A stretch of DNA of 20,298 nucleotides from a virus. Its lineage: Duplodnaviria > Heunggongvirae > Uroviricota > Caudoviricetes. The translations under genes and the position numbers were made by a program. Where the stretch lies: IMG/VR virus record IMGVR_UViG_2531839662_000026; one strand, 5' to 3'. The notes under the pieces were generated by a model. That model was not told the DNA's origin, searched no databases, and worked only from the letters and a program-made list of their open reading frames with translations. Each line of letters opens with the position of its first letter. Position 1 is the stretch's first letter. This document shows, piece after piece, positions 2,856-20,298 of this stretch.

Positions 2856-3074
2856 TCAAAGAGAGAGCGCCACCTGTCCTGATTTCATTGGATGCGGCTG
2901 AACCGGATTTGACTCTTTTGGCGTTGCAATCGAACGAACAAAAGTTTCATGGGTAACAAAAGTATGGCTGCAGTTAATGTTCTGGCACTGGTTGTAACGC
3001 TCTTTGGTCAATGAAGATACCTGAAAACTGCTGCGAGTATGGGCGGCACTTCCACACAGTGGGCAAATCATCAT
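2856..3074 (-). CDS. ogr: Late-gene transcription activator, Ogr (P2) / B (186) family zinc-finger protein, ~72 aa
   Basis: Translation MMICPLCGSAAHTRSSFQVSSLTKERYNQCQNINCSHTF... carries the C-x2-C...C-x4-C zinc finger and aligns with recalled P2 Ogr (MFHCPLCQHAAHARTS...KERYHQCQNVNCS). Start trimmed to the ATG at 3074; the ORF track extends upstream to 3107. Confidence 0.85.
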   Translation of the reverse strand: MMICPLCGSAAHTRSSFQVSSLTKERYNQCQNINCSHTFVTHETFVRSIATPKESNPVQPHPMKSGQVALSL

Positions 3075-3164
3075 TTTTCGAGCTCTCCCCATTTTTGCTA
3101 AATTCACAATAATGATACCGCATTATTCCATTTTGCAAACTTAAAAGTTCTCCATTGCGAAGAA

Positions 3165-4265
3165 TCATTCCATTTCGAAATCATCAATCCTCACTTCAAG
3201 CTCCAGACTGGTTGTAAAACCGTTATCCGGGCTGACGGTATGTGTCAGAGTCGTAATGGTCCATTCCGCATCATCTATCGGCTGTTTAAAACCACTGACC
3301 TTCACAGGCATTTCCGTGTAGAGATCTGCCCGCCCTTCTGCCAGTTGTAGCGAAAATGACGCAACGCCGCGTTGCAGGCGTTCCCACTGCATTTTCGCCG
3401 CTCGTTCGGCGTTGCTCCGGTTGGCATAAGTGCGATTAAGTACCAGCACGTTTTCATCCGTACCCACCAGGTAATCGCCCTGCTTCGCTTCTGGCTCTTT
3501 CTTCTGCTTCTTAGTTCTGCGCTTACGCTTCACCGTGGTGCTTTCTTTCTTCGCAGGTTCGCGGGTATGCAACCAGCTGGCAATTACGCCCGTGTAGGCT
3601 CCGCGATCTGCCAGGGTAAATCGGTGACTGTCGCCGTCCTTGCGTGTGATAGTGATCACTGGCAGAGGTTTACCAGTGGCGCTTTTGCCCTGCCCCTGCC
3701 GGATGAATAACAGATTGCCATTTTTCACCGACGCGATGGCACCGTACTGTCGCGCCAGCCGCATCAGAAAACTGCCGTCACTCTCATTAGTCTGGTCTAT
3801 ATGCTCCACGGGCTTATCCGACAGGTCTTTACCCAGTGCCATCTTCAGCTTGTGCCGCGCGGCTATTTCCTTCACCACTTCCCCGACGGTGGTCTTATGC
3901 CACGATTTTTCACGGCGGGTATTCAGCGTTTCCCGAAAATCAGCACTTCGCGCCCGGATAGTCAGGCGGTCCGGTGCGCCAGTGTGTTCAATCTCGTCCA
4001 CTGTGAATGCCCCTTTCGGGAAAAGCGGCTGCCCCTTCCAGCCCAGCGCCAGCGTAATAACCGCACCACGGCGCGGCAGCACGATTTTTCCGTCAGCGTC
4101 ATCCAGCTCCAGATCAAGCTGGTCCGCTTCAAAGCCCCGGTTATCCGTCAGCGTCAAACTCATCAGGCGGTTATCCAGCACAGTGGTGATATCCCTGCCC
4201 TCAATACTGATGCTGAATGCGGGAGTTTTGTTGCCTTTGTTAAGCAGTTCAGAGCTGAAATTCAC
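3165..4265 (-). CDS. D: Phage tail protein D (P2 gpD homologue)
   Basis: 366-aa ORF with ...LTDNRGFEADQLDLELDDADGKIVLPRRGAVITLALGW..., matching recalled P2 gpD; located between U' and ogr as in P2. Start probably GTG, overlapping the U stop. Confidence 0.85.
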   Translation of the reverse strand: MNFSSELLNKGNKTPAFSISIEGRDITTVLDNRLMSLTLTDNRGFEADQLDLELDDADGKIVLPRRGAVITLALGWKGQPLFPKGAFTVDEIEHTGAPDRLTIRARSADFRETLNTRREKSWHKTTVGEVVKEIAARHKLKMALGKDLSDKPVEHIDQTNESDGSFLMRLARQYGAIASVKNGNLLFIRQGQGKSATGKPLPVITITRKDGDSHRFTLADRGAYTGVIASWLHTREPAKKESTTVKRKRRTKKQKKEPEAKQGDYLVGTDENVLVLNRTYANRSNAERAAKMQWERLQRGVASFSLQLAEGRADLYTEMPVKVSGFKQPIDDAEWTITTLTHTVSPDNGFTTSLELEVRIDDFEME

Positions 4266-4660
4266 GACAGCAGCCCTCCCACCGTTTTACTGATATCGCT
4301 TAAGGCAGACGTTGCCGTGTCCTGCAGATTATTCAGTTGCGCACTGAGATCACCGAACATATCGGACAGGGATTCATCCACTCGTTTGAGCGACAGGGTG
4401 AACTCAATCCGGCGCGGCATACCGTCGCGGAAAAACTCCGTTTTAGTCTGATTCAGTCCCTCAATCACATACATGCCGTAAATCGTGCCGCTGCCTTCAA
4501 TCAGGGGCCATGCTTTCCCCTGTTCTGCCATCTGCTCCAGTGCCAGCAACGACAGCCTGCCGCCTGTTATTTCCGGCATAAGAACACCGGAAAGCGTCAG
4601 CATGTCGTTTTCCGGTCCCAGAAACTGCGTGGACGGACGTCGGTTTAACGCACCTCCGGT
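4262..4660 (-). pseudogene. U: 5'-truncated tail protein U gene (P2 gpU homologue), fused to an N fragment by an internal deletion
   Basis: ORF 4262-4603 (...GVLMPEITGGRLSLLALEQMAEQGKAWPLIEGSGTIYGMYVIEG...) resembles the C-terminal two-thirds of gpU. The same frame stays open upstream to about 4660 without a start codon, then meets a stop at the junction with N'. Confidence 0.6.
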
Positions 4661-4661
4661 C

Positions 4662-4760
4662 TACGGTGAACTTGCTGGACAGTTCTTCAACTGCCACACC
4701 GTTCAGACGCGCCAGTTGCTGCAGATAAGCGTTAAAAGCAAAGCGGGTATTCTTCTTCAT
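4662..4760 (-). pseudogene. N: Remnant of major capsid protein gene N (first ~33 codons only)
   Basis: ORF 4497-4760 begins MKKNTRFAFNAYLQQLARLNGVAVEELSSKFTV, which matches the recalled N-terminus of P2 gpN (MRQETRFKFNAYLSRVAELNGIDAGDVSKKFTV); similarity ends abruptly after FTV. Sits 16 nt downstream of O, as N does in P2. Confidence 0.6.
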
Positions 4761-4776
4761 CAGGTTTTGTGCTCCA

Positions 4777-5610
4777 TCAGCAATTGGTCAGAGTGTCAGC
4801 GGGGGCGTTACCGCCTGTTGCACGCTGGCGGTAGTCCTGGCGGCTGTCTTCATGGCTCAGCTTGTCCACCAGTTCGTTAAAGGCGGTCTGCTGTGCCTGC
4901 AGGGCAGTCTCCAGCTCAGACAGGCGTTCTTCCTGCTCAGACAGGGATTTTTCGGTGCGCGCACTCAGGTTCTGCTGCTCAGTGGCGACCAGTTCCACGG
5001 CCTTATGCACATCAGAGAACCGGGCGTCATCGGACTGCTCTTTTTTGGTGAACAGCGCCGTGACACGGGCAAACAGGGACGGTTTGTCATCCTGGATTTC
5101 TTCCAGTTCGATCACCGTTTCCTCTGCAGCGGTAAAAAGATTGGCGGGATTCTGCTTGCGGTTTGCCAGCGGGTTATGGGCTGCACTGGCGCTGAATGTC
5201 AGCATTTCAGTGCCCAGACTGGCAGGGTCATCAGTGGCAGCCAGGCCGACCAGGTAGGCTTTGCCCGTATCAGCGAACTTCGGGCTAACTTCCATAGATG
5301 TGAATAATTTCTGGCCTTTTTTCACCAGTTCCACCAGGGACTCCGTTGGCTCAACGTCGGCATACAGCGCCATCTTGCCTGCCAGCGGACCTTCCTTGAT
5401 TTCTTCAGCAAACAGCGCCGTCACCTTGCCGTAGCGGTTAAAGGTGCTGTCCGGCAGATAAGACTTGATGTGCTCAAGGTTAATCAGCGCGGTATACACC
5501 GCCGGGTTGTAGCTGGCTGCCATCTGTTCCAGCCATTCACGCTGGATTTCGCGTCCGTCGGTGGTGGCACCTTCCACCCCGATGCGAAAACGCTTTGCTT
5601 TCACTGTCAT
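4777..5610 (-). CDS. O: Capsid scaffolding protein (P2 gpO homologue)
   Basis: 277-aa ORF with FRIGVEGATTDGREI...INLEH...YLVGLAATDDPASLGTEML...KATGG...; matches recalled P2 gpO; divergent from P as in P2. Confidence 0.88.
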   Translation of the reverse strand: MTVKAKRFRIGVEGATTDGREIQREWLEQMAASYNPAVYTALINLEHIKSYLPDSTFNRYGKVTALFAEEIKEGPLAGKMALYADVEPTESLVELVKKGQKLFTSMEVSPKFADTGKAYLVGLAATDDPASLGTEMLTFSASAAHNPLANRKQNPANLFTAAEETVIELEEIQDDKPSLFARVTALFTKKEQSDDARFSDVHKAVELVATEQQNLSARTEKSLSEQEERLSELETALQAQQTAFNELVDKLSHEDSRQDYRQRATGGNAPADTLTNC

Positions 5611-5688
5611 GAGCCGTGCTCCGTTAGAAAAAACTTACTGGAGCCTTATGGTTGCGGTGATGGGGGCAGTGAAACAATGCGCGGTATT

Positions 5689-5706
5689 TGTACCGACAAC
5701 CACACA
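5689..5706. promoter_or_regulatory. TGT-N12-ACA dyad (tgtaccgacaaccacaca), candidate Ogr/B-dependent late promoter element in the O/P divergent intergenic region
   Basis: Motif read from sequence. P2-family late promoters carry a TGT-N12-ACA activator site upstream of the -35 position; this one lies ~87 bp upstream of the O start codon. Confidence 0.3.
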
Positions 5707-5752
5707 AACCGCAGGCGGGGAAAGCCTTCATTCAAGGTTGTAGGTTTGTGCC

Positions 5753-7519
5753 ATGAACACCACACTGACACCCGCAGATCTCGATCCCCGTCGGCAGGCC
5801 ATGCTGCTGTACTTTCAGGGATACCGCGTAGCCCGCATTGCTGAAATGCTGGGCGAGAAAGTTGCAACCGTTCACAGCTGGAAAAAACGCGACAAGTGGG
5901 GTGACTATGGGCCGCTGGATCAGATGCAGCTCACCACCGCCGCACGCTACTGCCAGCTCATCATGAAGGAGCACAAAGAAGGGAAAGATTTCAAAGAGAT
6001 TGACCTGCTGGCGCGCCAGTCGGAGCGCCACGCGCGGATCGGCAAGTTTAACAATGGCGGCAACGAAGCCGACTTAAACCCTAACGTCGCCAACCGCAAT
6101 AAAGGCCCACGCCGTCAGCCGGAAAAGAATGTTTTCACCGATGAGCAGATTGAGAAGCTGGAAGAAATCTTCCATTCCTCCATGTTCAACTACCAGCGCC
6201 ACTGGTGGGAAGCCGGAAAAACCAACCGCATCCGCAACCTGCTGAAGTCACGCCAGATCGGCGCGACCTTTTACTTTGCCCGTGAAGCCCTGATTGACGC
6301 CCTGCTTACCGGACGTAACCAGATTTTCCTTTCCGCCAGCAAGGCACAGGCCCACGTCTTTAAGCAGTACATCATCGACTTCGCCAAAGAAGTGGGGGTG
6401 GAGTTGAAAGGCGATCCGATGGTGCTTCCTAACGGGGCCACGCTTTACTTCCTCGGCACCAATGCCCGCACGGCCCAGAGTTATCACGGCAACCTGTATC
6501 TGGATGAATATTTCTGGATACCGAAATTCCAGGAGCTGCGCAAAGTGGCTTCCGGTATGGCTATTCACAAAAAATGGCGACAAACCTATTTTTCCACGCC
6601 ATCCAGCCTGACACACAGTGCTTATCCGTTCTGGTCCGGTGCGCTGTTCAACCGTGGGCGCAACAAGGCCGACAAGGTGGACATCGACCTGTCCCACAGC
6701 AATCTGGCCCCCGGCCTGCTGTGCGCAGACGGGCAATACCGCCAGATAGTCACCGTGGAAGATGCGGTGCGCGGCGGCTGTAACCTGTTCGACCTTGACC
6801 AGTTGCGCATGGAGTACAGCCCGGACGAATACCAGAACCTGCTGATGTGCGAGTTTGTGGACGATCTCGCGTCCGTATTTCCGCTCAGCGAGCTGCAGGC
6901 GTGCATGGTGGACAGCTGGGAAGTCTGGACCGACTTTCATGCACTGGCTCTGCGCCCGTTTGGCTGGCGCGAAGTGTGGATCGGTTATGACCCGGCAAAA
7001 GGTACGCAAAACGGCGACAGCGCCGGATGCGTGGTGGTGGCACCGCCAGCCGTGCCTGGTGGTAAGTTCCGCATTCTTGAGCGTCACCAGTGGCGCGGGA
7101 TGGACTTCCGCGCCCAGGCTGACGCCATCAAAAAACTGACCGAACAGTACAACGTGACCTATATCGGTATCGACTCAACCGGCGTTGGTCACGGGGTTTA
7201 TGAGAACGTGAAAGCGTTCTTTCCTGCCGTCCGGGAGTTTGTCTACAACCCCAATGTTAAAAACGCCCTGGTACTCAAGGCCTACGACATTATCAGCCAC
7301 CGCCGTCTGGAGTTTGACGCCGGGCACACCGACATTGCGCAGTCATTTATGGCAATCCGTCGCGCTACCACTGCCAGTGGCAACCGCCCGACCTATGAAG
7401 CCAGCCGCAGCGAAGAAGCCAGCCATGCCGATCTGGCCTGGGCAACAATGCACGCACTGTTTAACGAACCGCTGCAGGGCGAGTCCGCCAATACCAGCAA
7501 TATTGTGGAGATTTTTTGA
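5753..7519 (+). CDS. P: Terminase large (ATPase) subunit (P2 gpP homologue)
   Basis: 588-aa ORF MNTTLTPADLDPRRQAMLLYFQGYRVARIAEMLG... matches recalled P2 gpP in sequence and length; stop overlaps the Q start (tgATG). Confidence 0.9.
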   Translation: MNTTLTPADLDPRRQAMLLYFQGYRVARIAEMLGEKVATVHSWKKRDKWGDYGPLDQMQLTTAARYCQLIMKEHKEGKDFKEIDLLARQSERHARIGKFNNGGNEADLNPNVANRNKGPRRQPEKNVFTDEQIEKLEEIFHSSMFNYQRHWWEAGKTNRIRNLLKSRQIGATFYFAREALIDALLTGRNQIFLSASKAQAHVFKQYIIDFAKEVGVELKGDPMVLPNGATLYFLGTNARTAQSYHGNLYLDEYFWIPKFQELRKVASGMAIHKKWRQTYFSTPSSLTHSAYPFWSGALFNRGRNKADKVDIDLSHSNLAPGLLCADGQYRQIVTVEDAVRGGCNLFDLDQLRMEYSPDEYQNLLMCEFVDDLASVFPLSELQACMVDSWEVWTDFHALALRPFGWREVWIGYDPAKGTQNGDSAGCVVVAPPAVPGGKFRILERHQWRGMDFRAQADAIKKLTEQYNVTYIGIDSTGVGHGVYENVKAFFPAVREFVYNPNVKNALVLKAYDIISHRRLEFDAGHTDIAQSFMAIRRATTASGNRPTYEASRSEEASHADLAWATMHALFNEPLQGESANTSNIVEIF

Positions 7520-8553
7520 TGGGAAAGAGTAAGAAGAACCGCGCTGCGTCGACGAAACAGATCCAGCATAAAAGCCAGACTTCAGCCGAAGCATTCAGCT
7601 TCGGTGATCCCGTTCCTGTTCTGGACCGCCGCGAACTGCTGGACTATGTGGAATGCGTACAGATGGAGTGTTGGTACGAGCCACCCGTAAGTTTTGACGG
7701 ACTGGCGCGCACCTTCCGGGCTGCCGTGCATCACAGTTCCCCGATTGCAGTAAAGTGCAACATTCTGACCAGTACCTATATCCCTCATCCGCTGCTCAGC
7801 CAACAGGCTTTTTCGCGTTTTGTACAGGACTATCTGGTATTTGGTAACGCCTACCTGGAGAAACGCACGAACCGATTCGGTGAAGTTATCGCCCTTGAGC
7901 CTGCGCTGGCAAAATACACCCGACGCGGGTTAGACCTGGATACCTACTGGTTTGTGCAATACGGTATGACAACCCAGCCGTATCAGTTCACGAAAGGCAG
8001 CATTTTTCAGCTGATGGAACCGGACATCAACCAGGAGATCTACGGCCTGCCCGGCTATCTTTCTGCCATCCCATCCGCTTTGCTCAACGAGTCCGCCACG
8101 CTGTTCCGCCGCAAGTATTACATTAACGGCAGTCATGCCGGCTTCATCATGTACATGACCGATGCCGCGCAGAACCAGGAGGATGTGAACAACCTCCGCA
8201 ACGCAATGAAAAGCGCCAAAGGTCCGGGTAACTTCCGCAATCTGTTTATGTACTCGCCTAATGGTAAAAAAGACGGACTTCAGATTATCCCGTTGTCAGA
8301 AGTCGCAGCGAAGGATGAATTTCTGAATATCAAAAATGTTAGTCGCGATGACATGATGGCGGCACACCGCGTGCCGCCACAGATGATGGGGATAATGCCA
8401 AATAATGTTGGGGGGTTTGGGGATGTGGAGAAGGCAAGTAATGTATTTGTACGCAATGAACTAATACCATTGCAAAAAAGATTTGAAGAGTTAAATGTTT
8501 GGTTAAAAGAAAAAGTGATACAGTTCGAAGAATATAAACTTCATTCAAATTAG
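7519..8553 (+). CDS. Q: Portal (capsid vertex) protein (P2 gpQ homologue)
   Basis: 344-aa ORF MGKSKKNRA...FSFGDPVPVLDRRELLDYVEC...LARTFRAAVHHSSPIAVKCNILTSTYIPHP... matches recalled P2 gpQ closely. Start set at the ATG at 7519. Confidence 0.9.
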   Translation: MGKSKKNRAASTKQIQHKSQTSAEAFSFGDPVPVLDRRELLDYVECVQMECWYEPPVSFDGLARTFRAAVHHSSPIAVKCNILTSTYIPHPLLSQQAFSRFVQDYLVFGNAYLEKRTNRFGEVIALEPALAKYTRRGLDLDTYWFVQYGMTTQPYQFTKGSIFQLMEPDINQEIYGLPGYLSAIPSALLNESATLFRRKYYINGSHAGFIMYMTDAAQNQEDVNNLRNAMKSAKGPGNFRNLFMYSPNGKKDGLQIIPLSEVAAKDEFLNIKNVSRDDMMAAHRVPPQMMGIMPNNVGGFGDVEKASNVFVRNELIPLQKRFEELNVWLKEKVIQFEEYKLHSN

Positions 8554-8585: not shown

Positions 8586-9836
8586 TTATCGCCATTTTAG
8601 ATAAAAAGCAAAAAATGGATCAGTAATATGCAACTTTCGGTCCTCCTTATCCCAATCTATTACAGGAGTTGAAGCTTCTTCCGTAGCAGCTATTTTAGCC
8701 ATTTTTTCTATAACACGAGTAACCTCATGAGCTTGTGGAGGAGCATCTTGCACCAGTTCGCGTATGGCTGATCTTAACTCCTCATACTGAATACTTTGCA
8801 TTCCTGGTTTCATATGTGACAATGCATATAATACAACTTTATATATATCTACTTCCTCACCACTTTTCAGTTTTCTAGGAATTCTGTCAGTTCGCTGATT
8901 AGGGCCACTAGCTAACTTATCAAATACTATTTTCCCAGTGGATTCTGCAACCTTTCTAAAAATATCATCATCTAAAGAATTAATAACTAACTTACTCGGC
9001 AAAGTTTCTTTAACATTATTTGCTAAGCATATAGCCTTGCAAAACTCTTGCATTAAATGAGGGCTTCCCAATGATTCATTGGCAATTTTATCAATTACTG
9101 AATCACTAACTTCCATGTTTAACAGAGGAAATCCCACTTTTGCTATTTGTTTTAGTTCATCCATTTCCCACGAAGGCATGGAAATATTTTCTAGCCGTCC
9201 GGTAATTTCTTTTTCAACTTTTACAGCATCATATCTTCGATGTGGAATGGCTATCAGTACAACTGGTACTCCATCAAAAACTAATGGTTTTATCGCTCTA
9301 ATAAAGTTACCTTGTAGGTCACGATCAAGGTAATGAAAGTCATCAATTATAAGACTAGACTTGGTTTGAGAGAGAACTTTTAGTGCAGAACTTTTTGCGG
9401 ATATCGTTCGCGATTTTTTATTACCATTTGACTTTCCATCCGTCTGAACTAAACCAGCCTCACCTGTACCTTTAACAACGAATGCACTTGCGGTCCCCGA
9501 TACCTTACCACTAACTGCAATAGCACTATTTTCTCCAGAATTAACTTCAATACTATGGTAGCCATTTAGTTTTTCTAATACCTGCTCCCAAATATCATCT
9601 TCAGTTGTAATACTCCCACCGTCAATCCATACAACATCATCGTCCATGACTGGGAATACCATTCTTGTAATTACAGTCTTACCAGACTTTGTTTGCCCAG
9701 TTAAAGTCACTAACTTACATAAATTATCTTTAGCACTCTCCAGTTTTCCATGAACCTCTCCTTCAGAGCGCTCAACATAAGTCAATTTCGGCATACCGCC
9801 AGGCACAAAAACTTGTGAAGCACGTTGTTTATCCAT
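8586..9836 (-). CDS. Cargo gene: 416-aa P-loop NTPase (Walker A GQTKSGKT, Walker B LIIDDFH), function unknown; candidate anti-phage or accessory ATPase
   Basis: Long ORF with an ATG start preceded by a GGGAAG Shine-Dalgarno-like sequence. Walker motifs are visible in the translation. AT-rich compared with neighbouring phage structural genes. No homologue recognised from memory. Confidence 0.7.
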   Translation of the reverse strand: MDKQRASQVFVPGGMPKLTYVERSEGEVHGKLESAKDNLCKLVTLTGQTKSGKTVITRMVFPVMDDDVVWIDGGSITTEDDIWEQVLEKLNGYHSIEVNSGENSAIAVSGKVSGTASAFVVKGTGEAGLVQTDGKSNGNKKSRTISAKSSALKVLSQTKSSLIIDDFHYLDRDLQGNFIRAIKPLVFDGVPVVLIAIPHRRYDAVKVEKEITGRLENISMPSWEMDELKQIAKVGFPLLNMEVSDSVIDKIANESLGSPHLMQEFCKAICLANNVKETLPSKLVINSLDDDIFRKVAESTGKIVFDKLASGPNQRTDRIPRKLKSGEEVDIYKVVLYALSHMKPGMQSIQYEELRSAIRELVQDAPPQAHEVTRVIEKMAKIAATEEASTPVIDWDKEDRKLHITDPFFAFYLKWR

Positions 9837-9873
9837 GAATACTTCCCAATTAACACAGCTCTAGTGAACTACG

Positions 9874-9902
9874 ATTCTAAAATAACATCTGAGCTTGGAC
9901 AA
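9874..9902 (-). promoter_or_regulatory. Candidate sigma70 promoter for the ATPase cargo gene (TTGTCC - 17 nt - TAGAAT on the - strand)
   Basis: Hexamers and spacing read from sequence, ~40-65 nt upstream of the ATG at 9836. Confidence 0.3.
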
Positions 9903-9944
9903 TTAACATTACATGATTTGAGTATTCAAAGCCACAAGCGCGCG

Positions 9945-9963
9945 CTCGTATCCCCGCCACGCC
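9945..9963 (-). other. Candidate cos (cohesive end) site: - strand reads GGCGTGGCGGGGATACGAG
   Basis: First 13 nt match my recollection of the 186 cos end (GGCGTGGCGGGGAAAGCAT; P2 is GGCGAGGCGGGGAAAGCAC). Lies in a GC-rich non-coding island between the Q-side and A-side gene blocks, where cos is expected. Confidence 0.4.
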
Positions 9964-10123
9964 TGCCCGCTTTATGTAGCGGTTTTCATGCGCCTGCATG
10001 ACATAAGCAAAATCCCGCCACTCCTGGCGGGCCTCAGCTAAAACGATCCTCAAACGATCATGCGGATTCATGCGGCATAGACATGCACAATCTCCAAAGC
10101 GGGCATCGAGACTTTTTGGAAAC

Positions 10124-10735
10124 CTACGTAACCACAGTTAATGTGTGCATCCTGTCTCGAATTGCATCACACGTCTCATCAAAAAGCTTGGTGATGGTTG
10201 TATGGTTCAACTCCGCCTCTTTCCAATAATTTTGCCCGTCAAATTCTGGATCGCTATGCTTAAACGATATTGACTCTGTAAGGCATTCCTTCCGGAAACG
10301 GTCCAAGATTATATAAACCTCTGGTGAGATGAACGGTTTGTTAGATTCAACACTTGTAACAAAAGTGTTAAATGCATCAAAAAAAACTTTCAACCTTCTA
10401 AATTTTCTCTCTTCAAATGGTTCGTTGGGGTCAACATGATCCAGCGCAGGCCTCAGCTTAAGCACGCTTTCTCTGGTTTCAAACATCGAATTCCAAATGA
10501 GACTATATGCTGATAACTCCTTATCAAAATACGCTTTCGTTACATAAACAGAATTGTCTAACTTAGCCTTTATTCTTTCATTAGTTGCACTCAGTTGTGA
10601 TTGAAATTCAGCAATATCTTTGTTTAGCCGCGACTTATATCTTTCTAAATAAACTTTCCCGATCCAAACAAATATGCCAGATGCAACAAAAGACACCCCA
10701 CCCAACGAAGCCAGAACTTTAAAGACTAAATCCAT
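10124..10735 (-). CDS. Cargo gene: 203-aa protein with one N-terminal transmembrane helix, function unknown
   Basis: ATG at 10735 with a GGTGG Shine-Dalgarno-like sequence upstream. N-terminus VLASLGGVSFVASGIFVWIG is hydrophobic. AT-rich. A TATAAT -10 hexamer lies about 20-25 nt upstream of the ATG. Confidence 0.6.
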   Translation of the reverse strand: MDLVFKVLASLGGVSFVASGIFVWIGKVYLERYKSRLNKDIAEFQSQLSATNERIKAKLDNSVYVTKAYFDKELSAYSLIWNSMFETRESVLKLRPALDHVDPNEPFEERKFRRLKVFFDAFNTFVTSVESNKPFISPEVYIILDRFRKECLTESISFKHSDPEFDGQNYWKEAELNHTTITKLFDETCDAIRDRMHTLTVVT

Positions 10736-10783
10736 TGCGCCCCCACCTGCAAAAATAGTATTCCATTATAAGCTAATACATTT

Positions 10784-10999
10784 TTAATCAAACAGGGGAT
10801 AATTCGCGTCAACCTCATCACTTCTCTGCTCTCCCCTGGTGACTTCCATCAAAAACCCCAGGCCGTCATATAGCGAAACGGGGAATTCCAGCTCAAGCCA
10901 GAAGCAGTCTTCATAGATGCGGCCCAACCAAAAACCTCCGCCACACTCCTTTGGGCGTTGAAAGAAGACCCAGTCGCCAAGGGTTAAACGTTCCAGCAC
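10784..10999 (-). CDS. Hypothetical 71-aa ORF (GTG start), possibly the 3' part of an amber-interrupted gene
   Basis: ORF from the six-frame track. In the same frame, 45 nt upstream, an ATG with an RBS opens MGKKDSNHQIIYRG and then hits TAG immediately before the GTG. Confidence 0.3.
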   Translation of the reverse strand: MLERLTLGDWVFFQRPKECGGGFWLGRIYEDCFWLELEFPVSLYDGLGFLMEVTRGEQRSDEVDANYPLFD

Positions 11000-11117
11000 C
11001 TAGCCCCGATAAATAATCTGGTGATTACTGTCTTTTTTACCCATGGCTAACGCCTCGCTACTCTCGTTGTTCAACCTTGCTGACGTCAGATTCAAGTTCT
11101 TACATCAGGAACGTTCC

Positions 11118-11351
11118 TTAGTGCAGCCAGCTGTCGTCTTCCCAAACCTGTTGCATAATTTCCATCACCCGCTTTTTGTCTTCATCAAGCTTTAAGCCAC
11201 TCAGCTCAACGCCGTTTGCCGACCCTTTACGGATGCGGATAGCGGTCTTGGGATAGATGGGTTGCAGGTTGCGGTAAAGCTCGGACTCCAGAGCGTCCAG
11301 GGTAGACTGGCTAATCTTCTGCTCTTTATCGATCATTATTTCAATGCGCAT
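11118..11351 (-). CDS. DinI-family protein (~77 aa)
   Basis: Translation from the internal ATG, MRIEIMIDKEQKISQSTLDALESELYRNLQPIYP...VMEIMQQVWEDDSWLH, aligns with recalled E. coli DinI (MRIEVTIAKTSPLPAGAIDALAGELSRRIQYAFP...ISEILQETWESADDWF). GAGGTG RBS upstream of the ATG at 11351. Confidence 0.75.
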   Translation of the reverse strand: MRIEIMIDKEQKISQSTLDALESELYRNLQPIYPKTAIRIRKGSANGVELSGLKLDEDKKRVMEIMQQVWEDDSWLH

Positions 11352-11361
11352 AAAAGTCACC

Positions 11362-11550
11362 TCAGCTGATGACATCCATTGAGCGGTTGTATTCGTGGCT
11401 TCTGATTTTTGCCATGAGTTCATCAGTCAATTCAGAAACCCACTGCAGGGCCAGCCCCTTCTCTTCATCACTACACTCACTAGCCGCTACAAGCTTAAGA
11501 AAAAAATCAATGCGCTGGAGCTTCAAAGACTCCAAAAAATAGTCCTGCAT
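11362..11550 (-). CDS. Hypothetical 62-aa protein, first gene of the DinI-like operon; possible Tum-like antirepressor N-terminal module
   Basis: ATG at 11550 preceded by a perfect AGGAGG RBS. Position is equivalent to the 186 tum locus, downstream of A and near cos. The function is inferred from position only. Confidence 0.45.
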   Translation of the reverse strand: MQDYFLESLKLQRIDFFLKLVAASECSDEEKGLALQWVSELTDELMAKIRSHEYNRSMDVIS

Positions 11551-11593: not shown

Positions 11594-11609
11594 CTATTTA
11601 TATTTACAG
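11594..11609. promoter_or_regulatory. Degenerate LexA-box-like sequence (CTAT-N8-ACAG) overlapping a candidate -10 (TATACT) upstream of the 62-aa/DinI-like operon
   Basis: Read from sequence: 16 of 20 positions match TACTGTATATATATACAGTA, with one mismatch in a core CTGT half-site. On the - strand a TTTACA -35-like hexamer lies about 15 nt upstream of the -10. Confidence 0.3.
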
Positions 11610-11703: not shown

Positions 11704-14118
11704 TTAATACAGGTTCCGCCACTTATCATCTTCCTGCAAACGCTGGTTCCGATAGAAGACACGCAGGCCTGCTCCTGACGGAATACTGCCGCCGCGAAGG
11801 AGTAAATCGACCTCTTTCTCGCTGCCATCAAATCCTCTGGACTTCAGTTCATAGACGAGCTGCTGTCGTTGATGGTCTGTAATTCGCTGTTTGTAGTCTC
11901 TACGCCGTTTCGGTTTCACCAGGCGTAACCTTGCAGCCAGTTCCCGGCGCTCTTTTTTGTTCATACTGTGCAGGTAATCGTGCAACTCCTTGTCATCCAT
12001 GTGGGTAATGTCCGTTCTGGTATCCCCATCAGCTGATTTGTCTTTCCCTTGTTGGTTCAAATTTTCAGCAAGGGGACAGTTATTGCCACGAGTCCAAGGG
12101 GCGCAAGCGCCCTGGTCGGCTGCCGCCTCCTGAACGTCAACGGCCTTACGAACCATTTTCCACTTCACCGCATGAGTGCAGATCTTGCCCTCTGCAATGG
12201 GTGACCAGATGCCATAAATACGAATACCGTGATCGCCATAGGCGGTTGGCTCTTCGTTGATTTCATAAGCGGTTCTGATGAGGTGATATTTACGGGGAAC
12301 CAGTACGCCGCCCTGCTTCATGATATAGGTGGCAAAACAACCAGCATCAGCAGCAGCCAGAATGGCATCAAGGCGCGGGTTATCCAGTACCGGCGCACCT
12401 GCTTTTTTGTCACCCTGTTGCCTTGCCGCCTGACCAGCCAGCAATCGCAGTTCACGGTAAGCCTGACGCCCCGGAATGCCAAAGAAGCGGAATTGCTGAA
12501 CACGATGCAGAGACGCCCAGGCATTAACGTATTCAGCGTTATCACGCAGGGATTTACCCGTTTCCTTGCTGATCTCCCCAGCCAGACCACGCCCGTCAAT
12601 GTTCTTACTGATGTATTTCGCGATATAGCTTGTTGGCGTACCTTTGCGCGGGTTTATCAGCTCAGACTTAAAGCGTGGTCCCGTGTTATTGCCCAGCTCC
12701 TCGCGGTCTTCACGGATGGCAAACTTACGCAGTAATGCAGTGATGGCGCGGCGGTCTTTTTTACGCATGAAACACATGAGATGCCAGTGCACAGTACCGT
12801 CATGATGCGGCTCAGCTACCCGCACGCCATACCAGCGCAACTCGGCTTTATGCATAGCCTTACGAAATGCAGCAAACATGCCGACCAGATAATCGCTACT
12901 TTGTCTTACCGTCGCGTTTGTCCAGGTCGGGTTTGGTCTGCCGTTATTGAGCGTGGAATGGAAACGCGACGGACAGGTGATAGTGTAGAAAACGGCACAG
13001 TCACTGCGCATTTCCGCGATAAGCTCCAGACCTTTAACACAGGCCATCATCTCATTGCGGCGATGCGCCGGGTTGCTGCTGCTGGCGTTTACCACATCTT
13101 CCATATCCAGCGTGTCGCCGTCTTCGTTCACCAGTTCATGAGAACGAAAAAACTCCAGCGACTTACGGCGCTGCTCACGTTTATGCATCACGGCTTCATA
13201 GCTGACATAGGGGGATGCTTTTTTGCTGACCAGGCAGACAGCACGCAACTGCTCTTCCCGCCATTCGCAACGCATCTTCCATAATTTCCGATACCACCAG
13301 TCGGCACACAACATACGCGCCAGCGAACCCGGGATGAGTTCATAGGGCACTGGTTTGCGGCGGTTTCTTTTCCGACGAAGTTTCTCAAATGCAGGCGGGA
13401 TAACATCCAGACGCAGGGTTTCCGCTGCCACCTTTTCCCATGTCTTGCGGATTTCTTCTGGCTTAACGTCATCGGTGGCATACAAATCACCACAAGCGTC
13501 CTCAAGACACATGCTCATATGCGCTGCTACCAGGGTGGACAGGCGTTTCACCTGATCCTGGCTCATTTCAGGCAGGATCAGCAGACCCTCCAGCCCTTGA
13601 TGGCTTGCCATAAAACGGAAAGAAACAGATAGCTGACTGTCACGTACACAATCCAGTCGCTCCAGACATGGCTTAATCGTCTCACGCAAATAGCGGGAAT
13701 AAGCCTTTGGCCTGCCCAGGCTGCTGAAGTATTCAATACGTTGCATCAGCGGCTTGCTGATATGGGAAGGCTGGGCGTTTACGTCCGCCAGAATGACCAT
13801 GTCCGGATTAAAACGCTGCTGCTCATGCGCCAGCTTTGCCCGGCTAATGAGCTTATCCTGCTCCATTTCGCGCTGGACAGGATCACGGGATTCATTAAAG
13901 AAATAACGCTCCCAGACCTGCTCACTCAGTGCCTCGCGGCGCAGTTGTTCCTGCTCGTTATCGGCAGCGTACAGAGTGATCAGGTTTGAAAGTGCAGACT
14001 CCGGCGCAACTTCCGCCGGGTCCAGATAAGGGTTAATGGCCTTTTTCGAGCCGTTCCATGAAAATGCTGCGGCGGCCTCGTTAAAGCCGCTGCAATTGTT
14101 CATATCGTCATGACTCAT
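11704..14118 (-). CDS. A: Replication initiation endonuclease (P2 gpA family rolling-circle initiator)
   Basis: ~800-aa ORF with the conserved tyrosine motif [10 protein letters not shown] and overall similarity to recalled P2/186 A. Start placed at the ATG at 14118, which overlaps the dam stop (ATGA); the ORF track extends to a GTG at 14124. Confidence 0.88.
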
Positions 14119-14972
14119 ACACACACTCCGTACACGGCAGAACTATCCACGCCACGCGAAGGATCAAATCCCAACCAGCAGCTCGGCCCGGAAACAGCAA
14201 TGATTTCTGTTGCAGATTTACCCTCGCCAGCTGACACGCCGATGCTGCGTTTTGCCTTGATATAGTGGTGAGTAAAATTGCGATACAGCGAACGAATCAG
14301 GGATGTGTCATTGTTAGAAACAATGACCGGATGTCCTTCTGATGACCGATGTTCAAGAATGGATGCCAGGTGATACTGGTCATCTTCAGTGAAACCATCA
14401 GTGTGATAGCCGGAAAACGTACCGTCATACGGCGGATCGCAATACACCACATCCCCCACCTGCAGCATCGCCAGCGTTTCATCAAAGCTCGCGCAGATAA
14501 ACGTTGCCCGCTGGGCTTTCTCTGCAAATGCGCGAATTTCTTTTTCAGGGAAATACGGATTTTTATAATTACCGTAGGGAATGTTGAAATACCCGCTCTT
14601 GTTATAGCGACATAAACCACGGTAACCGTGACGATTGAGATACAGGAAATATATCGCCTTCATGAAATCAGTAATTTCAGTTGAGTAATTAAACTCCTGT
14701 CTTATGTTGTAATAAGCCAGCTCACTGTTTGCTTCCTCAAATAAAACTTTGGCACGAGATATAAACGCTTCGCAATCAGCGGCAATCTTTTTATAGAGGT
14801 TGATTAAATCAGGATTAATATCCGCAACCAGATAGCTGGGGTAATCCGTCGCCATCATCACAGCACAAGAACCCGCGAAAGGTTCAACCAGTCGCGGGCC
14901 AGCAGGAAGGTATTTTTTCAGTTCGGACATAATGGCGGTTTTATTACCCGCCCATTTCAGGATGGTGCTCAT
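14115..14972 (-). CDS. dam: Dam-like N6-adenine DNA methyltransferase (~285 aa)
   Basis: Translation [11 protein letters not shown]...[11 protein letters not shown]...[15 protein letters not shown]...VYCDPPY... carries the KWAGxK, FxGxG and DPPY motifs and aligns with recalled E. coli Dam. Start trimmed to the ATG at 14972, which overlaps the upstream stop. Confidence 0.85.
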
Positions 14973-16868: not shown

Positions 16869-17465
16869 ATGTCAACATCAAAGTACCCAAGTGAGATCAA
16901 AATAAATCCCAATAAAGGTGGTAAGGCTGCGATTGAGCGATTAGTCGAAGCTTATGGCTTTACGACACGACAGGCTTTAGCTGATCACTTGGAAGTATCA
17001 AAAAGCACTCTGGCGAACAGGTATTTGCGGGATACGTTTCCTGCAGACTGGATAATCCAATGTGCTCTTGAAACAGGAACCTCACTGAAATGGTTAACCA
17101 CCGGGCAAGGACTTAAGCAAAGCTCGCTGACAGTAGCCACAGAAGAGCTTCCCAAGTTTCGCCTTACCGCAGGCAAAATGATTGAAGATGGTTCATATGT
17201 ATTCGATTCATCATTTCTTCCTGCAAATCTTTCATCACCAATTGTTATTCAGGATGGGCTTGTCACATACATTTGTGATCAAAAATTTTCTGAAGTACTT
17301 GATGGACACTGGTTAATCAACATCGACGGAACCTATTCCATTCGAAAAATCACAAAGCTTCCAAAAGGTATGATTAAAATTACAACTACAGAGAATAGCT
17401 TTGAATGTGCATTTTCTGATATTGAAGTGGTTGCTTGTATAAGAAGTACAATAGTTTCAAATTGA
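16869..17465 (+). CDS. cI: CI-like immunity repressor (198 aa)
   Basis: ATG start. N-terminal HTH-like segment (RQALADHLEVSKSTLANRYL), plus position and orientation (divergent from apl, same strand as int), fit the 186 CI family. Confidence 0.8.
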   Translation: MSTSKYPSEIKINPNKGGKAAIERLVEAYGFTTRQALADHLEVSKSTLANRYLRDTFPADWIIQCALETGTSLKWLTTGQGLKQSSLTVATEELPKFRLTAGKMIEDGSYVFDSSFLPANLSSPIVIQDGLVTYICDQKFSEVLDGHWLINIDGTYSIRKITKLPKGMIKITTTENSFECAFSDIEVVACIRSTIVSN

Positions 17466-17485
17466 TATAGTAAAAGGATTTAAAA

Positions 17486-19162
17486 ATGAATTCATTTTCC
17501 ATCGTTATATTATTATTAGCATTTCTCGCCCCTGTTCTAGCTATAATATTATTTAAGCAAAGTAAAGAACACAAAGCCGCCATAGATAACCTGACGGCTA
17601 ACAACATAGCCCTTTCCAGCCAACTGAGTGAAAATCAAGAAAAGTTAGCACAGACTGCACGAGATCTATCAGAGCTTGAAGGGCGAGCAGCACCATTATG
17701 GCAATACGAAGAATTGCACAGCGCAGTGATGGAGGCAGAGAATAAGATAAAAAATGCAGACTCAATAGCTAGGCAAAAAATAGAAGAAGCCCAAATAAAG
17801 GCAGCTAAGACAGTAAACGAAGCAAGTTATCAAGCTCAGATAACAATAAGCAACGCTAATAGCGAAGCTATAGCAATCACCAAAGACGCTCGCGATGCAC
17901 GCCTGAAAGCCAAAGAACGTCTTGATAATGCCAACAGTAAAGCAAATGAGCTGATCTCAAATGCTAATGACAACGCAGTAAAAATTATTACCGATGCAGA
18001 AGAAAGAGCAAAAGAGATTGCTGGTTCAGCATATGAAGCTAAAGAGTTTGCAGAAAAATATGAAGCAGTTGCCAAATCAATGAAAAATAAAATTGAAGGT
18101 TATGGCGATGAATGGATCATCCCTAACCGTAGTGTACTTGATGAATTGGCAGAAAATTATGAGTTTACAGATGCAGGCAAGGAATTACAAAAAGCCAGGG
18201 AGTTAACAAAATCATTAATAAAAACTAATAAAGCAGCTTCGTGTGATTATGTTGAGCAAAACAGGCGTAATACTGCTATCAACTTTGTTTTGGATGCCTT
18301 CAATGGAAGAGTTGACAGTATTTTATCAAAAGTCAAACACAACAATTTTGGAAAACTTTCCCAAGAAATAAAAGATGCATTTCAACTTGTAAATTATAAT
18401 GGCTCTGCTTTTAGATCCGCAAAAATAAGTGACATCTATCTTCAGGCACGACTCAACGAGCTAAAATGGGGAGTTGCAGTTAATGAAATTATGCTCGAAG
18501 AAAAAGAGGAGCAAAGAAGGATTAAAGAACAGCTTCGTGAAGAGGAAAGAGCTCGTAGAGAGTATGAAAAAGCGATAAAAGAAGCCGAAAAAGAAGAAAA
18601 AGCTATTCAGCAAGCTATAAATAAAGCAACGAAAGAGCTTATGCTTGCAAATGAAGAACAACGCTTAGCTTTAGAGCAAAAAATAGCTGAACTACAGTTA
18701 AAATATGAAGAAGCTGAAGCTAAAAACCAACGAGCTATTTCTATGGCTCAACAAACTAGATCAGGCCATGTTTATATAATTAGCAATATTGGCTCATTTG
18801 GCGAAGATGTATATAAAATTGGAATGACACGCCGCCTTGAACCACTTGATCGTGTTCGTGAACTTGGGGATGCTAGTGTTCCTTTTTCGTTCGATGTTCA
18901 TGCGATGATTTATAGTGATGATGCACCGTCATTAGAAAATCATCTGCATAAAGTCTTCAACGAAAAGCAGGTCAATAAAATTAACTCACGAAAAGAGTTT
19001 TTTAACGTAAATATTAAAGAAATTAAATCGGTTATTGAAGATATGAACATCAATGCCCACTGGACAATGTTTGCAGAGGCGAAAGAATATAGAGAGTCAC
19101 TAGCTATTGAGCAGGAACGCAAAGCAGCCACTTCCGCCAACGATGAACTACATGTTGCTTAG
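17486..19162 (+). CDS. Cargo gene: 558-aa protein with an N-terminal transmembrane helix, a long coiled coil and a C-terminal T5orf172/GIY-YIG-like domain; candidate lysogen-expressed defence or exclusion factor
   Basis: ATG with an AAGGA RBS 8 nt upstream, 20 bp after the cI stop. Hydrophobic N-terminus FSIVILLLAFLAPVLAIILF. Strongly A/E/K/Q-rich middle with repeated NANS/NAND motifs. C-terminus GHVYIISNIGSFGEDVYKIGMTRRLEPLDRVRELGDASVPFSFDVH...EFFNVNIKEIKSVIEDMN fits the T5orf172 (MUG113) pattern as I recall it. Markedly AT-rich. Confidence 0.8.
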   Translation: MNSFSIVILLLAFLAPVLAIILFKQSKEHKAAIDNLTANNIALSSQLSENQEKLAQTARDLSELEGRAAPLWQYEELHSAVMEAENKIKNADSIARQKIEEAQIKAAKTVNEASYQAQITISNANSEAIAITKDARDARLKAKERLDNANSKANELISNANDNAVKIITDAEERAKEIAGSAYEAKEFAEKYEAVAKSMKNKIEGYGDEWIIPNRSVLDELAENYEFTDAGKELQKARELTKSLIKTNKAASCDYVEQNRRNTAINFVLDAFNGRVDSILSKVKHNNFGKLSQEIKDAFQLVNYNGSAFRSAKISDIYLQARLNELKWGVAVNEIMLEEKEEQRRIKEQLREEERARREYEKAIKEAEKEEKAIQQAINKATKELMLANEEQRLALEQKIAELQLKYEEAEAKNQRAISMAQQTRSGHVYIISNIGSFGEDVYKIGMTRRLEPLDRVRELGDASVPFSFDVHAMIYSDDAPSLENHLHKVFNEKQVNKINSRKEFFNVNIKEIKSVIEDMNINAHWTMFAEAKEYRESLAIEQERKAATSANDELHVA

Positions 19163-19220
19163 CAATGTATGTTTCATAGCAATCACACATTGATTACTGG
19201 TTGTATATACAGTTAAATTT

Positions 19221-19245
19221 AGCCCTCTGATATGAGGGCTTTTTT
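19221..19245 (+). terminator. Rho-independent terminator candidate (agccctc-tgatat-gagggct + TTTTT) ending one base before the int ATG
   Basis: 7-bp perfect stem followed by ttttt, read from sequence; the int start codon follows at 19246. Confidence 0.5.
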
Positions 19246-20298
19246 ATGGCAGTACGAAAACTCACCACAGGAAAATGGCTTTGCGAATGTTACCCCGCCG
19301 GACGTAGTGGACGTCGTGTGCGTAAACAATTCGCCACCAAAGGCGAAGCACTGGCTTTTGAGCGTCACACGATGGAAGAAACCGAAGCAAAGCCCTGGCT
19401 AGGTGAATCAGTGGATCGTCGAACACTGAAAGACGTGGTTGAGCTATGGTTCAAACTACATGGTAAATCACTGACAGCTGGGCAGCATGTCTATGACAAA
19501 TTGCTGCTGATGGTTGACGCTCTGGGCAATCCCCTTGCAACTGATCTAACCTCTAAAATGTTTGCCCACTATCGAGATAAACGCCTGACAGGTGAGATCT
19601 ACTTCAGCGAGAAATGGAAGAAAGGAGCAAGCCCGGTCACCATTAACCTGGAGCAAAGCTATCTAAGTAGTGTTTTTAGCGAACTATCCCGCCTGGGCGA
19701 ATGGTCGTATCCGAACCCACTGGAGAACATGCGAAAATTCACCATCGCAGAAAAAGAGATGGCATGGCTTACCCATGAGCAGATTGTTGAATTACTGGCT
19801 GATTGCAAACGTCAGGACCCAATTCTGGCACTGGTAGTTAAGATATGCTTAAGCACAGGCGCACGCTGGCGAGAAGCCATAAATCTTACTCGTTCACAGG
19901 TGACCAAATACCGAATTACCTTTGTAAGAACGAAGGGGAAGAAAAATAGAAGCATCCCTATCAGTAAAGAGCTTTACGAAGAGATCATGGCGCTTGATGG
20001 GTTCAATTTCTTCACAGACTGCTATTTTCAATTTTTATCCGTGATGGAAAAAACGTCTATCGTGCTCCCTCGCGGTCAACTCACACACGTTCTGCGCCAT
20101 ACGTTTGCGGCGCACTTCATGATGTCGGGTGGAAACATTCTGGCCTTACAAAAAATTCTCGGACACCACGATATAAAAATGACTATGCGTTACGCACATC
20201 TGGCACCGGATCATCTGGAAACGGCGCTCCGTTTCAATCCTCTGGCAACGCTGCCAAGTGGCGACAAAGTGGCGGCAGCGGTTGGCATTACCCCGTAA
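19246..20298 (+). CDS. int: Tyrosine integrase, P2/186 family (350 aa)
   Basis: Translation aligns along its length with recalled P2 Int (e.g. CLSTGARW.EA..L....V....ITF..TK, HVLRHTFA.HFMM.GG.I..LQ.ILGH..I..TM.YAH.AP). Its 3' end contains the att core copy; stop at 20296-20298. Confidence 0.9.
   Translation: MAVRKLTTGKWLCECYPAGRSGRRVRKQFATKGEALAFERHTMEETEAKPWLGESVDRRTLKDVVELWFKLHGKSLTAGQHVYDKLLLMVDALGNPLATDLTSKMFAHYRDKRLTGEIYFSEKWKKGASPVTINLEQSYLSSVFSELSRLGEWSYPNPLENMRKFTIAEKEMAWLTHEQIVELLADCKRQDPILALVVKICLSTGARWREAINLTRSQVTKYRITFVRTKGKKNRSIPISKELYEEIMALDGFNFFTDCYFQFLSVMEKTSIVLPRGQLTHVLRHTFAAHFMMSGGNILALQKILGHHDIKMTMRYAHLAPDHLETALRFNPLATLPSGDKVAAAVGITP
20259..20280. repeat. attL core candidate (tggcgacaaagtggcggcagcg) inside the 3' end of int
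   Basis: Matches 21 of 22 bases to 2834-2855. Confidence 0.6.

Follow-up and report, generated by a model that had tools for sequence, protein, structure and literature searches.

A divergent SNIPE/PD-λ-1-family gene as probable anti-phage cargo between cI and int of a 186-like prophage

Taken together, our analyses make it very probable that the gene at positions 17486-19162 (plus strand, ATG to TAG, 558 aa) of the window, that is, of the whole 20,298-nucleotide stretch of DNA analysed, encodes a single-protein anti-phage system of the SNIPE (PD-λ-1) family, borne by a 186-like prophage as cargo of its lysogenic operon. Sequence comparison supports its placement as a new, divergent member of this family in a hotspot of a known type. 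The gene lies between a 186-type cI repressor gene (16869-17465, 198 aa; Pfam Phage_CI_repr, 8e-32, and Phage_CI_C, 2.5e-27) and, as its 3' neighbour, the gene for a tyrosine integrase (int; 19246-20298, 350 aa), both likewise on the plus strand, while a 186-type CII is encoded on the opposite strand. A spacer of 20 nt between the cI stop codon (TGA, 17463-17465) and the ATG contains a Shine-Dalgarno motif, AAGGA (17474-17478), 7 nt 5' of the ATG, and the GC content of the gene is 37.5%, lower than that of the window (48%) and of the replication gene (52.7%). An earlier note on this DNA had thus rightly described an AT-rich gene with its own ribosome-binding site 20 bp downstream of cI, and its statement that int directly follows the repressor gene in 186 and P2 agrees with the abutting cI and int genes of phage 186 and with the 115 gene-free nucleotides between C and int of P2. 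The entire 20.3-kb window is 100% identical to Escherichia coli UMNF18, where the protein is WP_001084072.1 (100% identity) and the carrier, located between ybjL and rcdA, is a P2/186-like prophage that is defective, having lost most tail and capsid genes and containing tail and capsid pseudogenes.

The assignment to the family is carried by profile matches over most of the protein. PADLOC, which the earlier note had proposed as a check for a defence system, returned PD-Lambda-1 with two profiles, PDLC03976 (E = 1.1e-119, with aa 105-550 matching positions 35-481 of the 491 in the profile) and PDLC03977 (2.1e-116), and in PHROGs the protein matched phrog_1847 (4e-132), to which no function is assigned there. 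In Pfam, where T5orf172, MUG113 and perhaps DUF4041 had been anticipated, all three were matched: DUF4041 (PF13250) at aa 267-322 (18284-18451; E = 3.1e-12, with 46.6 bits exceeding the cut-off of 27) and the nuclease domains at aa 427-520 (T5orf172, 6e-17; MUG113, 1.6e-19). The current Pfam name of PF13250 is 'SNIPE', and some close copies of the protein bear the RefSeq name 'SNIPE associated domain-containing protein'. That a close homologue, SNIPE, has already been characterised lowers the novelty of the gene and leaves the correctness of the earlier reading unaffected. Other assignments were discarded. The N-terminal region, searched against Pfam at E ≤ 1, matched only the sub-threshold coil families DivIVA, ATP-synt_B, TssO and TMF, and a DivIVA domain in the stalk was dropped as a sub-threshold, coil-like match. 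Similarly, a relationship to SMC proteins ('chromosome segregation ATPase') was rejected, as TIGR02169, with a cut-off of 729 bits, scored just 15.5 and matched no more than a coiled-coil stretch, and neither Pfam nor the profile searches gave a match to an ATPase family. A profile search of solved structures gave nothing significant (ATP synthase b at E ~0.02, covering the stalk only), and the structures searched included no deposited SNIPE structure.

The single transmembrane (TM) helix of the protein, as the earlier note had claimed, corresponds to the one hydrophobic 19-mer at aa 4-22 (FSIVILLLAFLAPVLAIIL; 17495-17551; KD19 = 3.04), which is the sole strongly hydrophobic segment and is flanked by three residues on its N-terminal side and by the K-rich FKQSKEHK on its C-terminal side; this positive-inside flank predicts an N-out/C-in topology. 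An AlphaFold2 (AF2) model built from a 50-sequence alignment (mean pLDDT 82.5) continues the TM helix into a long helical stalk (aa 25-204, 17558-18097) as one unbroken helix of aa 2-204, followed by a compact helical domain containing DUF4041 (aa 205-315, 18098-18430; compact in the model over aa 214-306), a charged helical linker modelled as a long helix and aligned with SNIPE by BLASTP (aa 316-425, 18431-18760), an α/β domain (aa 427-520) and a C-terminal helix. The ~350 residues of coiled coil that had been reported are therefore indeed helical, but they do not form one stretch, since the DUF4041 domain separates aa 25-204 from aa 316-425. The α/β domain corresponds to a GIY-YIG (T5orf172/MUG113) nuclease domain (18761-19060) with the motifs G427-H-V-Y430, Y443-K-I-G446, R449/R450, H472, E484 (codon 18935-18937) and N497; among 51 diverse homologues Y430 and H472 are invariant, while conservation reaches at least 98% at G427, K444-I445-G446, R449, R450, E484 and N497. 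A Foldseek search of the PDB with the whole chain was uninformative because the helices dominate it (long-helix artefacts only, best E = 0.15; Slx1 at rank 35), and for this reason the C-terminal domain was modelled on its own; that model shows a GIY-YIG fold.

PD-λ-1 was found by functional selection (Vassallo et al. 2022, PMC9519451) and, once its mode of action had been worked out, was given the name SNIPE (Saxton et al., Nature 2026, PMC13190303). [quoted passage not shown] Its DUF4041 domain binds DNA and crosslinks to the siphovirus tape-measure protein, the protein associates with ManYZ, and λ DNA is cut during injection and not afterwards; SNIPE is reported as a direct defence that acts at injection and that cells survive, and myoviruses, podoviruses and prophage induction are unaffected (PMC13190303). 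We took WP_032286722.1 (500 aa), from a lambdoid prophage of E. coli MP1, as canonical SNIPE because nine of the nine residues named in the paper (E223, N250, L253, W257, E264, K305, I308, T319 and E414) are present at the stated positions. Like SNIPE, the 558-aa protein is encoded by a single prophage-borne gene, has the domain order TM helix, helical stalk, DUF4041, charged helical linker and GIY-YIG/T5orf172, is predicted to share the short periplasmic N-terminus and the basic cytoplasmic flank of the TM helix, and keeps the catalytic glutamate (E414 in SNIPE, E484 here). It also has the N-terminal membrane anchor that is essential in SNIPE and that ~66% of homologues possess.

The two proteins differ markedly in the parts that precede the nuclease. 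In BLASTP, the 558-aa protein aligns with WP_032286722.1 over aa 265-555 (49% identity, E = 1e-76) and its N-terminal part has no match; by region, identity falls from 69% in the GIY-YIG domain and 46% in the linker to 18% in the DUF4041 region and 14% in both the stalk and the TM helix, leaving the TM helix and stalk without detectable similarity. Moreover, 204 aa precede the conserved GY motif, compared with 123 aa in SNIPE, a difference of 81 aa, and since ~200 aa is the modal length before this motif in the 51 diverse homologues, it is SNIPE that appears as the short variant. The position of W257 of SNIPE is occupied by K327, and by K or R in 43 of the 51 homologues, so that the family norm seen here resembles the gain-of-function substitution W257R, which strengthens binding of SNIPE to the Bas14 tape-measure protein (PMC13190303). 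The genetic contexts are different as well: the WP_032286722.1-type copy is flanked by ren and the nin region in a lambdoid prophage, whereas the gene described here occupies the cI-int interval of a 186-like myovirus prophage. Given the low identity in the DUF4041 region (18%) and the N-terminal region (14%), neither the association with ManYZ nor the phage range can be transferred from SNIPE, and on sequence grounds the 558-aa form probably has a different range.

Likenesses to other systems are more distant. PD-Lambda-1 of Streptococcus thermophilus EU01 belongs to the same PADLOC/DefenseFinder family and is active against siphoviruses by experiment (bioRxiv 10.1101/2024.10.22.618286), but it is a chromosomal gene of a Gram-positive host and is likened to ours by its family class. 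Two PD-Lambda-1 homologues of S. thermophilus that are 98.5% identical have completely different activity (bioRxiv 10.1101/2024.10.22.618286); changes of at most 1.5% can thus cost activity, and for this reason activity of the 558-aa form cannot be assumed. Zorya and Kiwa similarly act at the inner membrane when the genome is injected; however, they are multi-gene systems with MotAB-like or multi-TM sensors and separate effectors, and they have no homology to the 558-aa protein.

In the model that we favour, the 558-aa protein would be produced constitutively in the lysogen, co-transcribed with cI, and would enter the inner membrane by its single N-terminal TM helix in the N-out/C-in orientation, with everything from the stalk through the DUF4041 domain and the linker to the GIY-YIG nuclease reaching into the cytoplasm and the tether holding the nuclease off the chromosome. 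[quoted passage not shown] Both the nuclease activity and the injection-site mechanism are thus inferred by homology to E. coli SNIPE. We propose that the carrier prophage would escape because it is a myovirus and already inside the cell.

A GIY-YIG protein at the membrane could also protect a population in other ways. The toxicity of TM-less SNIPE to the host chromosome reveals a nuclease without intrinsic self/non-self discrimination, and the DUF4041 and N-terminal regions have diverged so much that regulation could differ; conceivably, then, the protein might be an abortive-infection toxin that is freed from or activated at the membrane, degrades both host and phage DNA and kills the cell. 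We consider this improbable, because the architecture is identical to that of SNIPE, for which direct, injection-stage defence with surviving cells is reported, and because the module encodes no protease or sensor partner. The conservation of the active site bears on a different possibility, namely superinfection exclusion independent of nuclease activity, in which the protein would sterically block the conduit or the tape-measure protein, like Sie or Imm, and the GIY-YIG domain would merely bind DNA. The membrane anchor, the adjoining immunity repressor gene and the historical annotation of T5orf172 as 'DNA-binding' (its UniRef name) would all fit such a role, yet conservation of at least 98% at the catalytic GIY-YIG positions, including the metal-binding glutamate, in the 51 homologues is unexpected for a non-catalytic domain, and E414A abolishes defence by SNIPE; this possibility is accordingly highly improbable.

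It is conceivable, finally, that the gene owes its position to homing, as a selfish element resembling a homing endonuclease, or that it is a routine phage or chromosome-segregation gene. Phage homing endonucleases are known to contain T5orf172/GIY-YIG domains, the gene is rich in AT and has the look of a horizontal acquisition, and the copies in phages KP12 and 813R9 are annotated 'chromosome segregation ATPase'. However, the SMC and DivIVA matches are sub-threshold coiled coil (15-24 bits against cut-offs of 260-729), a TM anchor and DUF4041 are foreign to homing endonucleases, the boundaries of the exchanged segment lie inside cI and at the int leader and not around a free-standing endonuclease gene, and the strong full-length match is to a validated defence family, which together leave this explanation with next to no likelihood. 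By contrast, defence cargo with a membrane-tethered, nuclease-type effector, as the earlier note had proposed, is supported by the PADLOC match, the SNIPE architecture, the position next to and co-oriented with cI, and the defence systems that occupy the same slot in relatives.

Comparison with prophages at the same attachment site delimits the exchanged segment. In blastn, homology to these sibling prophages extends to ~17121, through the cI helix-turn-helix (HTH) domain (16869-17121, ~90% shared), and returns at 19183; breakpoints against L005, L003 and L008 fall at 17110-17121, and homology to Klebsiella phage 4LV2017 returns at 19163. The variable module hence covers 17122-19182 and comprises the cI C-terminal domain (17122-17465) and the gene itself. 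Rather than the clean insertion between cI and int that had been suggested, the breaks inside cI and at the int leader indicate that the exchanged unit is the cI C-terminal domain together with the defence gene. In the same slot, the sibling prophages have a 63-aa ORF and phage 4LV2017 an unassigned 349-aa protein. We surveyed the slot with a CI profile in 66 species-level genomes, 61 of which have both cI and int; the two genes abut in 26 of the 61 and are separated by cargo of 0.4-3.3 kb in the other 35. The proteins encoded in the inserts fall into ~25 clusters, almost all of them in the orientation of cI; PADLOC matches among them are PD-Lambda-1 (7 loci), HEC-01 A+B, PDC-M18 A+B, PDC-M11A, PDC-S20/PifA-like, a TIR-like protein and an OLD/AriA-like ATPase, and several others are unassigned. 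DUF2971 and Panacea genes, also considered as cargo of this slot, actually lie downstream of int, beside attR. The cI-int junction is a defence hotspot of a type already in the literature: a cI-int hotspot has been described in Vibrionaceae K139-like, P2-related phages (Rousset 2022, PMC9122126), and 'integrase-primase' (8% of systems) and 'integrase-att' (3%) are minor hotspots of P2-like prophages (NAR 2026, PMC13586616). These hotspots have in common with ours the repressor-integrase cargo and the differing defence systems at one place in relatives; they differ in that the published enterobacterial account is coarse, while the slot is resolved here to the junction of the cI stop codon and the int leader.

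Beyond the cargo, int is preceded by a conserved leader (19183-19245, plus strand) that is kept in sibling prophages whatever the cargo, and the slot is filled chiefly in the lineage that has this leader before int. The leader contains a promoter-like sequence, TTGATT-17-TTAAAT (19190-19218), with a LexA-box-like palindrome, CTGG-N8-ACAG (19197-19212), as its spacer, and a hairpin, AGCCCTC/GAGGGCT (19221-19240; z = -4.2), with a T-run into the int ATG (to 19246). The hairpin and T-run previously read as the gene's own terminator are therefore real, but they are not the cargo's terminator because the leader is conserved regardless of cargo. A search with the LexA 20-mer consensus, allowing up to three mismatches, gave no match, and the LexA core pattern matched once against 0.85 expected by chance, so that the idea of a LexA box rests on positional conservation. 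In the 20-nt spacer upstream of the gene, a simple scan that also missed pL itself detected no promoter-like or terminator-like site, and consequently the gene is most likely co-transcribed with cI from pL, judging from spacing alone.

Because the regions presumed to determine specificity are strongly unlike those of the SNIPE studied so far, the 558-aa form offers a natural comparator for what sets phage range. It adds a widespread, prophage-borne variant to a family whose mechanism, in which self and non-self are told apart by location at the injection site, was recently solved; it does not overturn current understanding, and is of value chiefly as a natural variant in specificity. The 186-like repressor-integrase junction, in turn, is an example of a defence slot that would be expressed together with the immunity repressor. 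Tentatively, and with more doubt than confidence, we speculate that these observations might be joined as follows. The 558-aa form would represent a distinct, abundant SNIPE subfamily whose long stalk and diverged DUF4041 aim the nuclease at another injection apparatus, either other tape-measure clades or a non-ManYZ conduit in the inner membrane, and it would be hard-wired to one cI allele, the two genes together forming an 'immunity plus injection-nuclease' cassette. Cassette and hotspot would be enabled by the int leader, which might uncouple int from the lysogenic transcript if the covarying hairpin terminates transcription or sequesters the int Shine-Dalgarno sequence and the LexA-box promoter starts inside the hairpin, making int SOS-inducible.

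The 558-aa form is constant in length and 82-99% identical in E. coli, Citrobacter, Salmonella, Klebsiella, Enterobacter, Raoultella and others, within a wider family of 1403 representatives (50% clustering, E ≤ 1e-30). In complete E. coli genomes, the block of cI, gene and int is found in 164 of 5426 (3%) and the int module of the window in 1135. The layout of cI (198 aa), 20 nt, the 558-aa gene, 82 nt and int is identical in Klebsiella, Salmonella and Enterobacter, and the modules of these three contain no conserved partner gene. A partial match in E. coli, examined as a possible N-terminal domain swap, is an IS5-truncated pseudogene. Two sequenced phages, KP12 (99.7%) and vB_EcoM-813R9 (96%), have the block as well, and in both of them the ATPase name given to the gene, mentioned above, is a mis-annotation. 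Finally, we note that a relative with 52% identity likewise occupies the cI-int interval, in this case within a larger island.

The DNA leading into int in the window (19183-19248) contains two elements that are conserved among cargo-bearing 186-like prophages, as seen by comparing the 80 nt preceding int in the window with those of the related prophage loci L021-L057, L073, and L079. The element on the 5' side is promoter-like, TTGAyy-17-TTAAAT, and its spacer is a LexA-box-like palindrome that reads CTGG-N8-ACAG in the window (19197-19212) and CACTGT-N8-ACAGT as the consensus. The LexA-like half-sites and the promoter hexamers are almost invariant across 28 loci; what varies in the same 28 is the N8 between the palindrome halves and the upstream DNA. 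The second element is a hairpin placed directly against the int ATG. Its stem shows covariation (nine stem variants, z -2.1 to -7.0), an SD-like GGAG/GAGG lies in the 3' arm of every variant, and a T-run follows the hairpin in most of them. Loci in which cI and int abut have neither the promoter/LexA-like element nor the hairpin (control z +0.5 and +1.5).

Altogether, the conserved LexA-like promoter element and the covarying hairpin, both missing where cI and int abut, suggest that int is shielded from the cI-cargo transcript, through termination or sequestration of the SD sequence, and that it would be transcribed from a candidate SOS-controlled promoter with its start inside the hairpin. 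No description of such an arrangement was found in the literature searched. A weak sigma-70-like site, TGGACA-16-AAGAAT (19061-19088, + strand; 9/12 matches), is located in the 3'-terminal part of the defence gene, ~160 nt ahead of int; because the region around it holds fewer promoter-like sites than shuffled sequence, this site is probably a chance match.

Elsewhere in the window, a LexA-like box with one core mismatch, TATACTGTAAATATAAATAGTGG (11594-11609, - strand), precedes, at a distance of ~50 nt, a small ORF that is followed by a DinI-family ORF (both ORFs within 11118-11550, - strand). The layout is similar to that of the tum antirepressor operon of 186, which is under SOS control.

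The prophage carrying these elements is defective. At 2856-5610 of the window (5371-8125 of locus L001), ogr and D run straight into a tail gene and a capsid gene, both truncated, and then the scaffold gene, from which it follows that almost the entire tail and lysis region has been deleted. The immunity region is kept, as are both defence-cargo regions. The second of these cargo regions (8586-11000, - strand) is AT-rich (GC 40%) and occupies the classical P2 hotspot, which has the portal gene (7516-8553) on one side and replication gene A (11704-14124) on the other. Encoded here are a 416-aa AAA-ATPase-like protein (8586-9836, - strand), with a match to PDC-S59, a PADLOC candidate, at 1.2e-31 and a weak one to AAA_22, and a 203-aa protein (10124-10735, - strand), for which the RefSeq name 'valyl-tRNA synthetase' is a mis-annotation; no family was assigned to the small ORFs of this region.

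In sibling prophages, the interval from int to attR is another variable slot (L003:4799-5551, L004:4746-5974, L006:4686-5018, L007:4603-5325, L012:4653-5858, and L013:6910-7770), in agreement with the 'integrase-att' minor hotspot of a 2026 NAR survey (PMC13586616). Its cargo includes a DUF2971/PDC-S31 candidate (4e-23), a Panacea-domain protein with a partner, a weakly HEPN-like 240-aa protein, and a pentapeptide-repeat protein as well as unknowns.

In E. coli strain 500111 (L011:1874-3960), an IS5 insertion has taken out cI together with ~240 codons from the start of the SNIPE-family gene, and what remains of that gene is a pseudogene that adjoins int. In E. coli MP1 (L002:6984-10393), the canonical-type SNIPE gene is carried by a lambdoid prophage, with the ren/P replication genes on one side of it and the nin region on the other, and the adjoining gene for a 515-aa HD-domain protein may be a further cargo gene.
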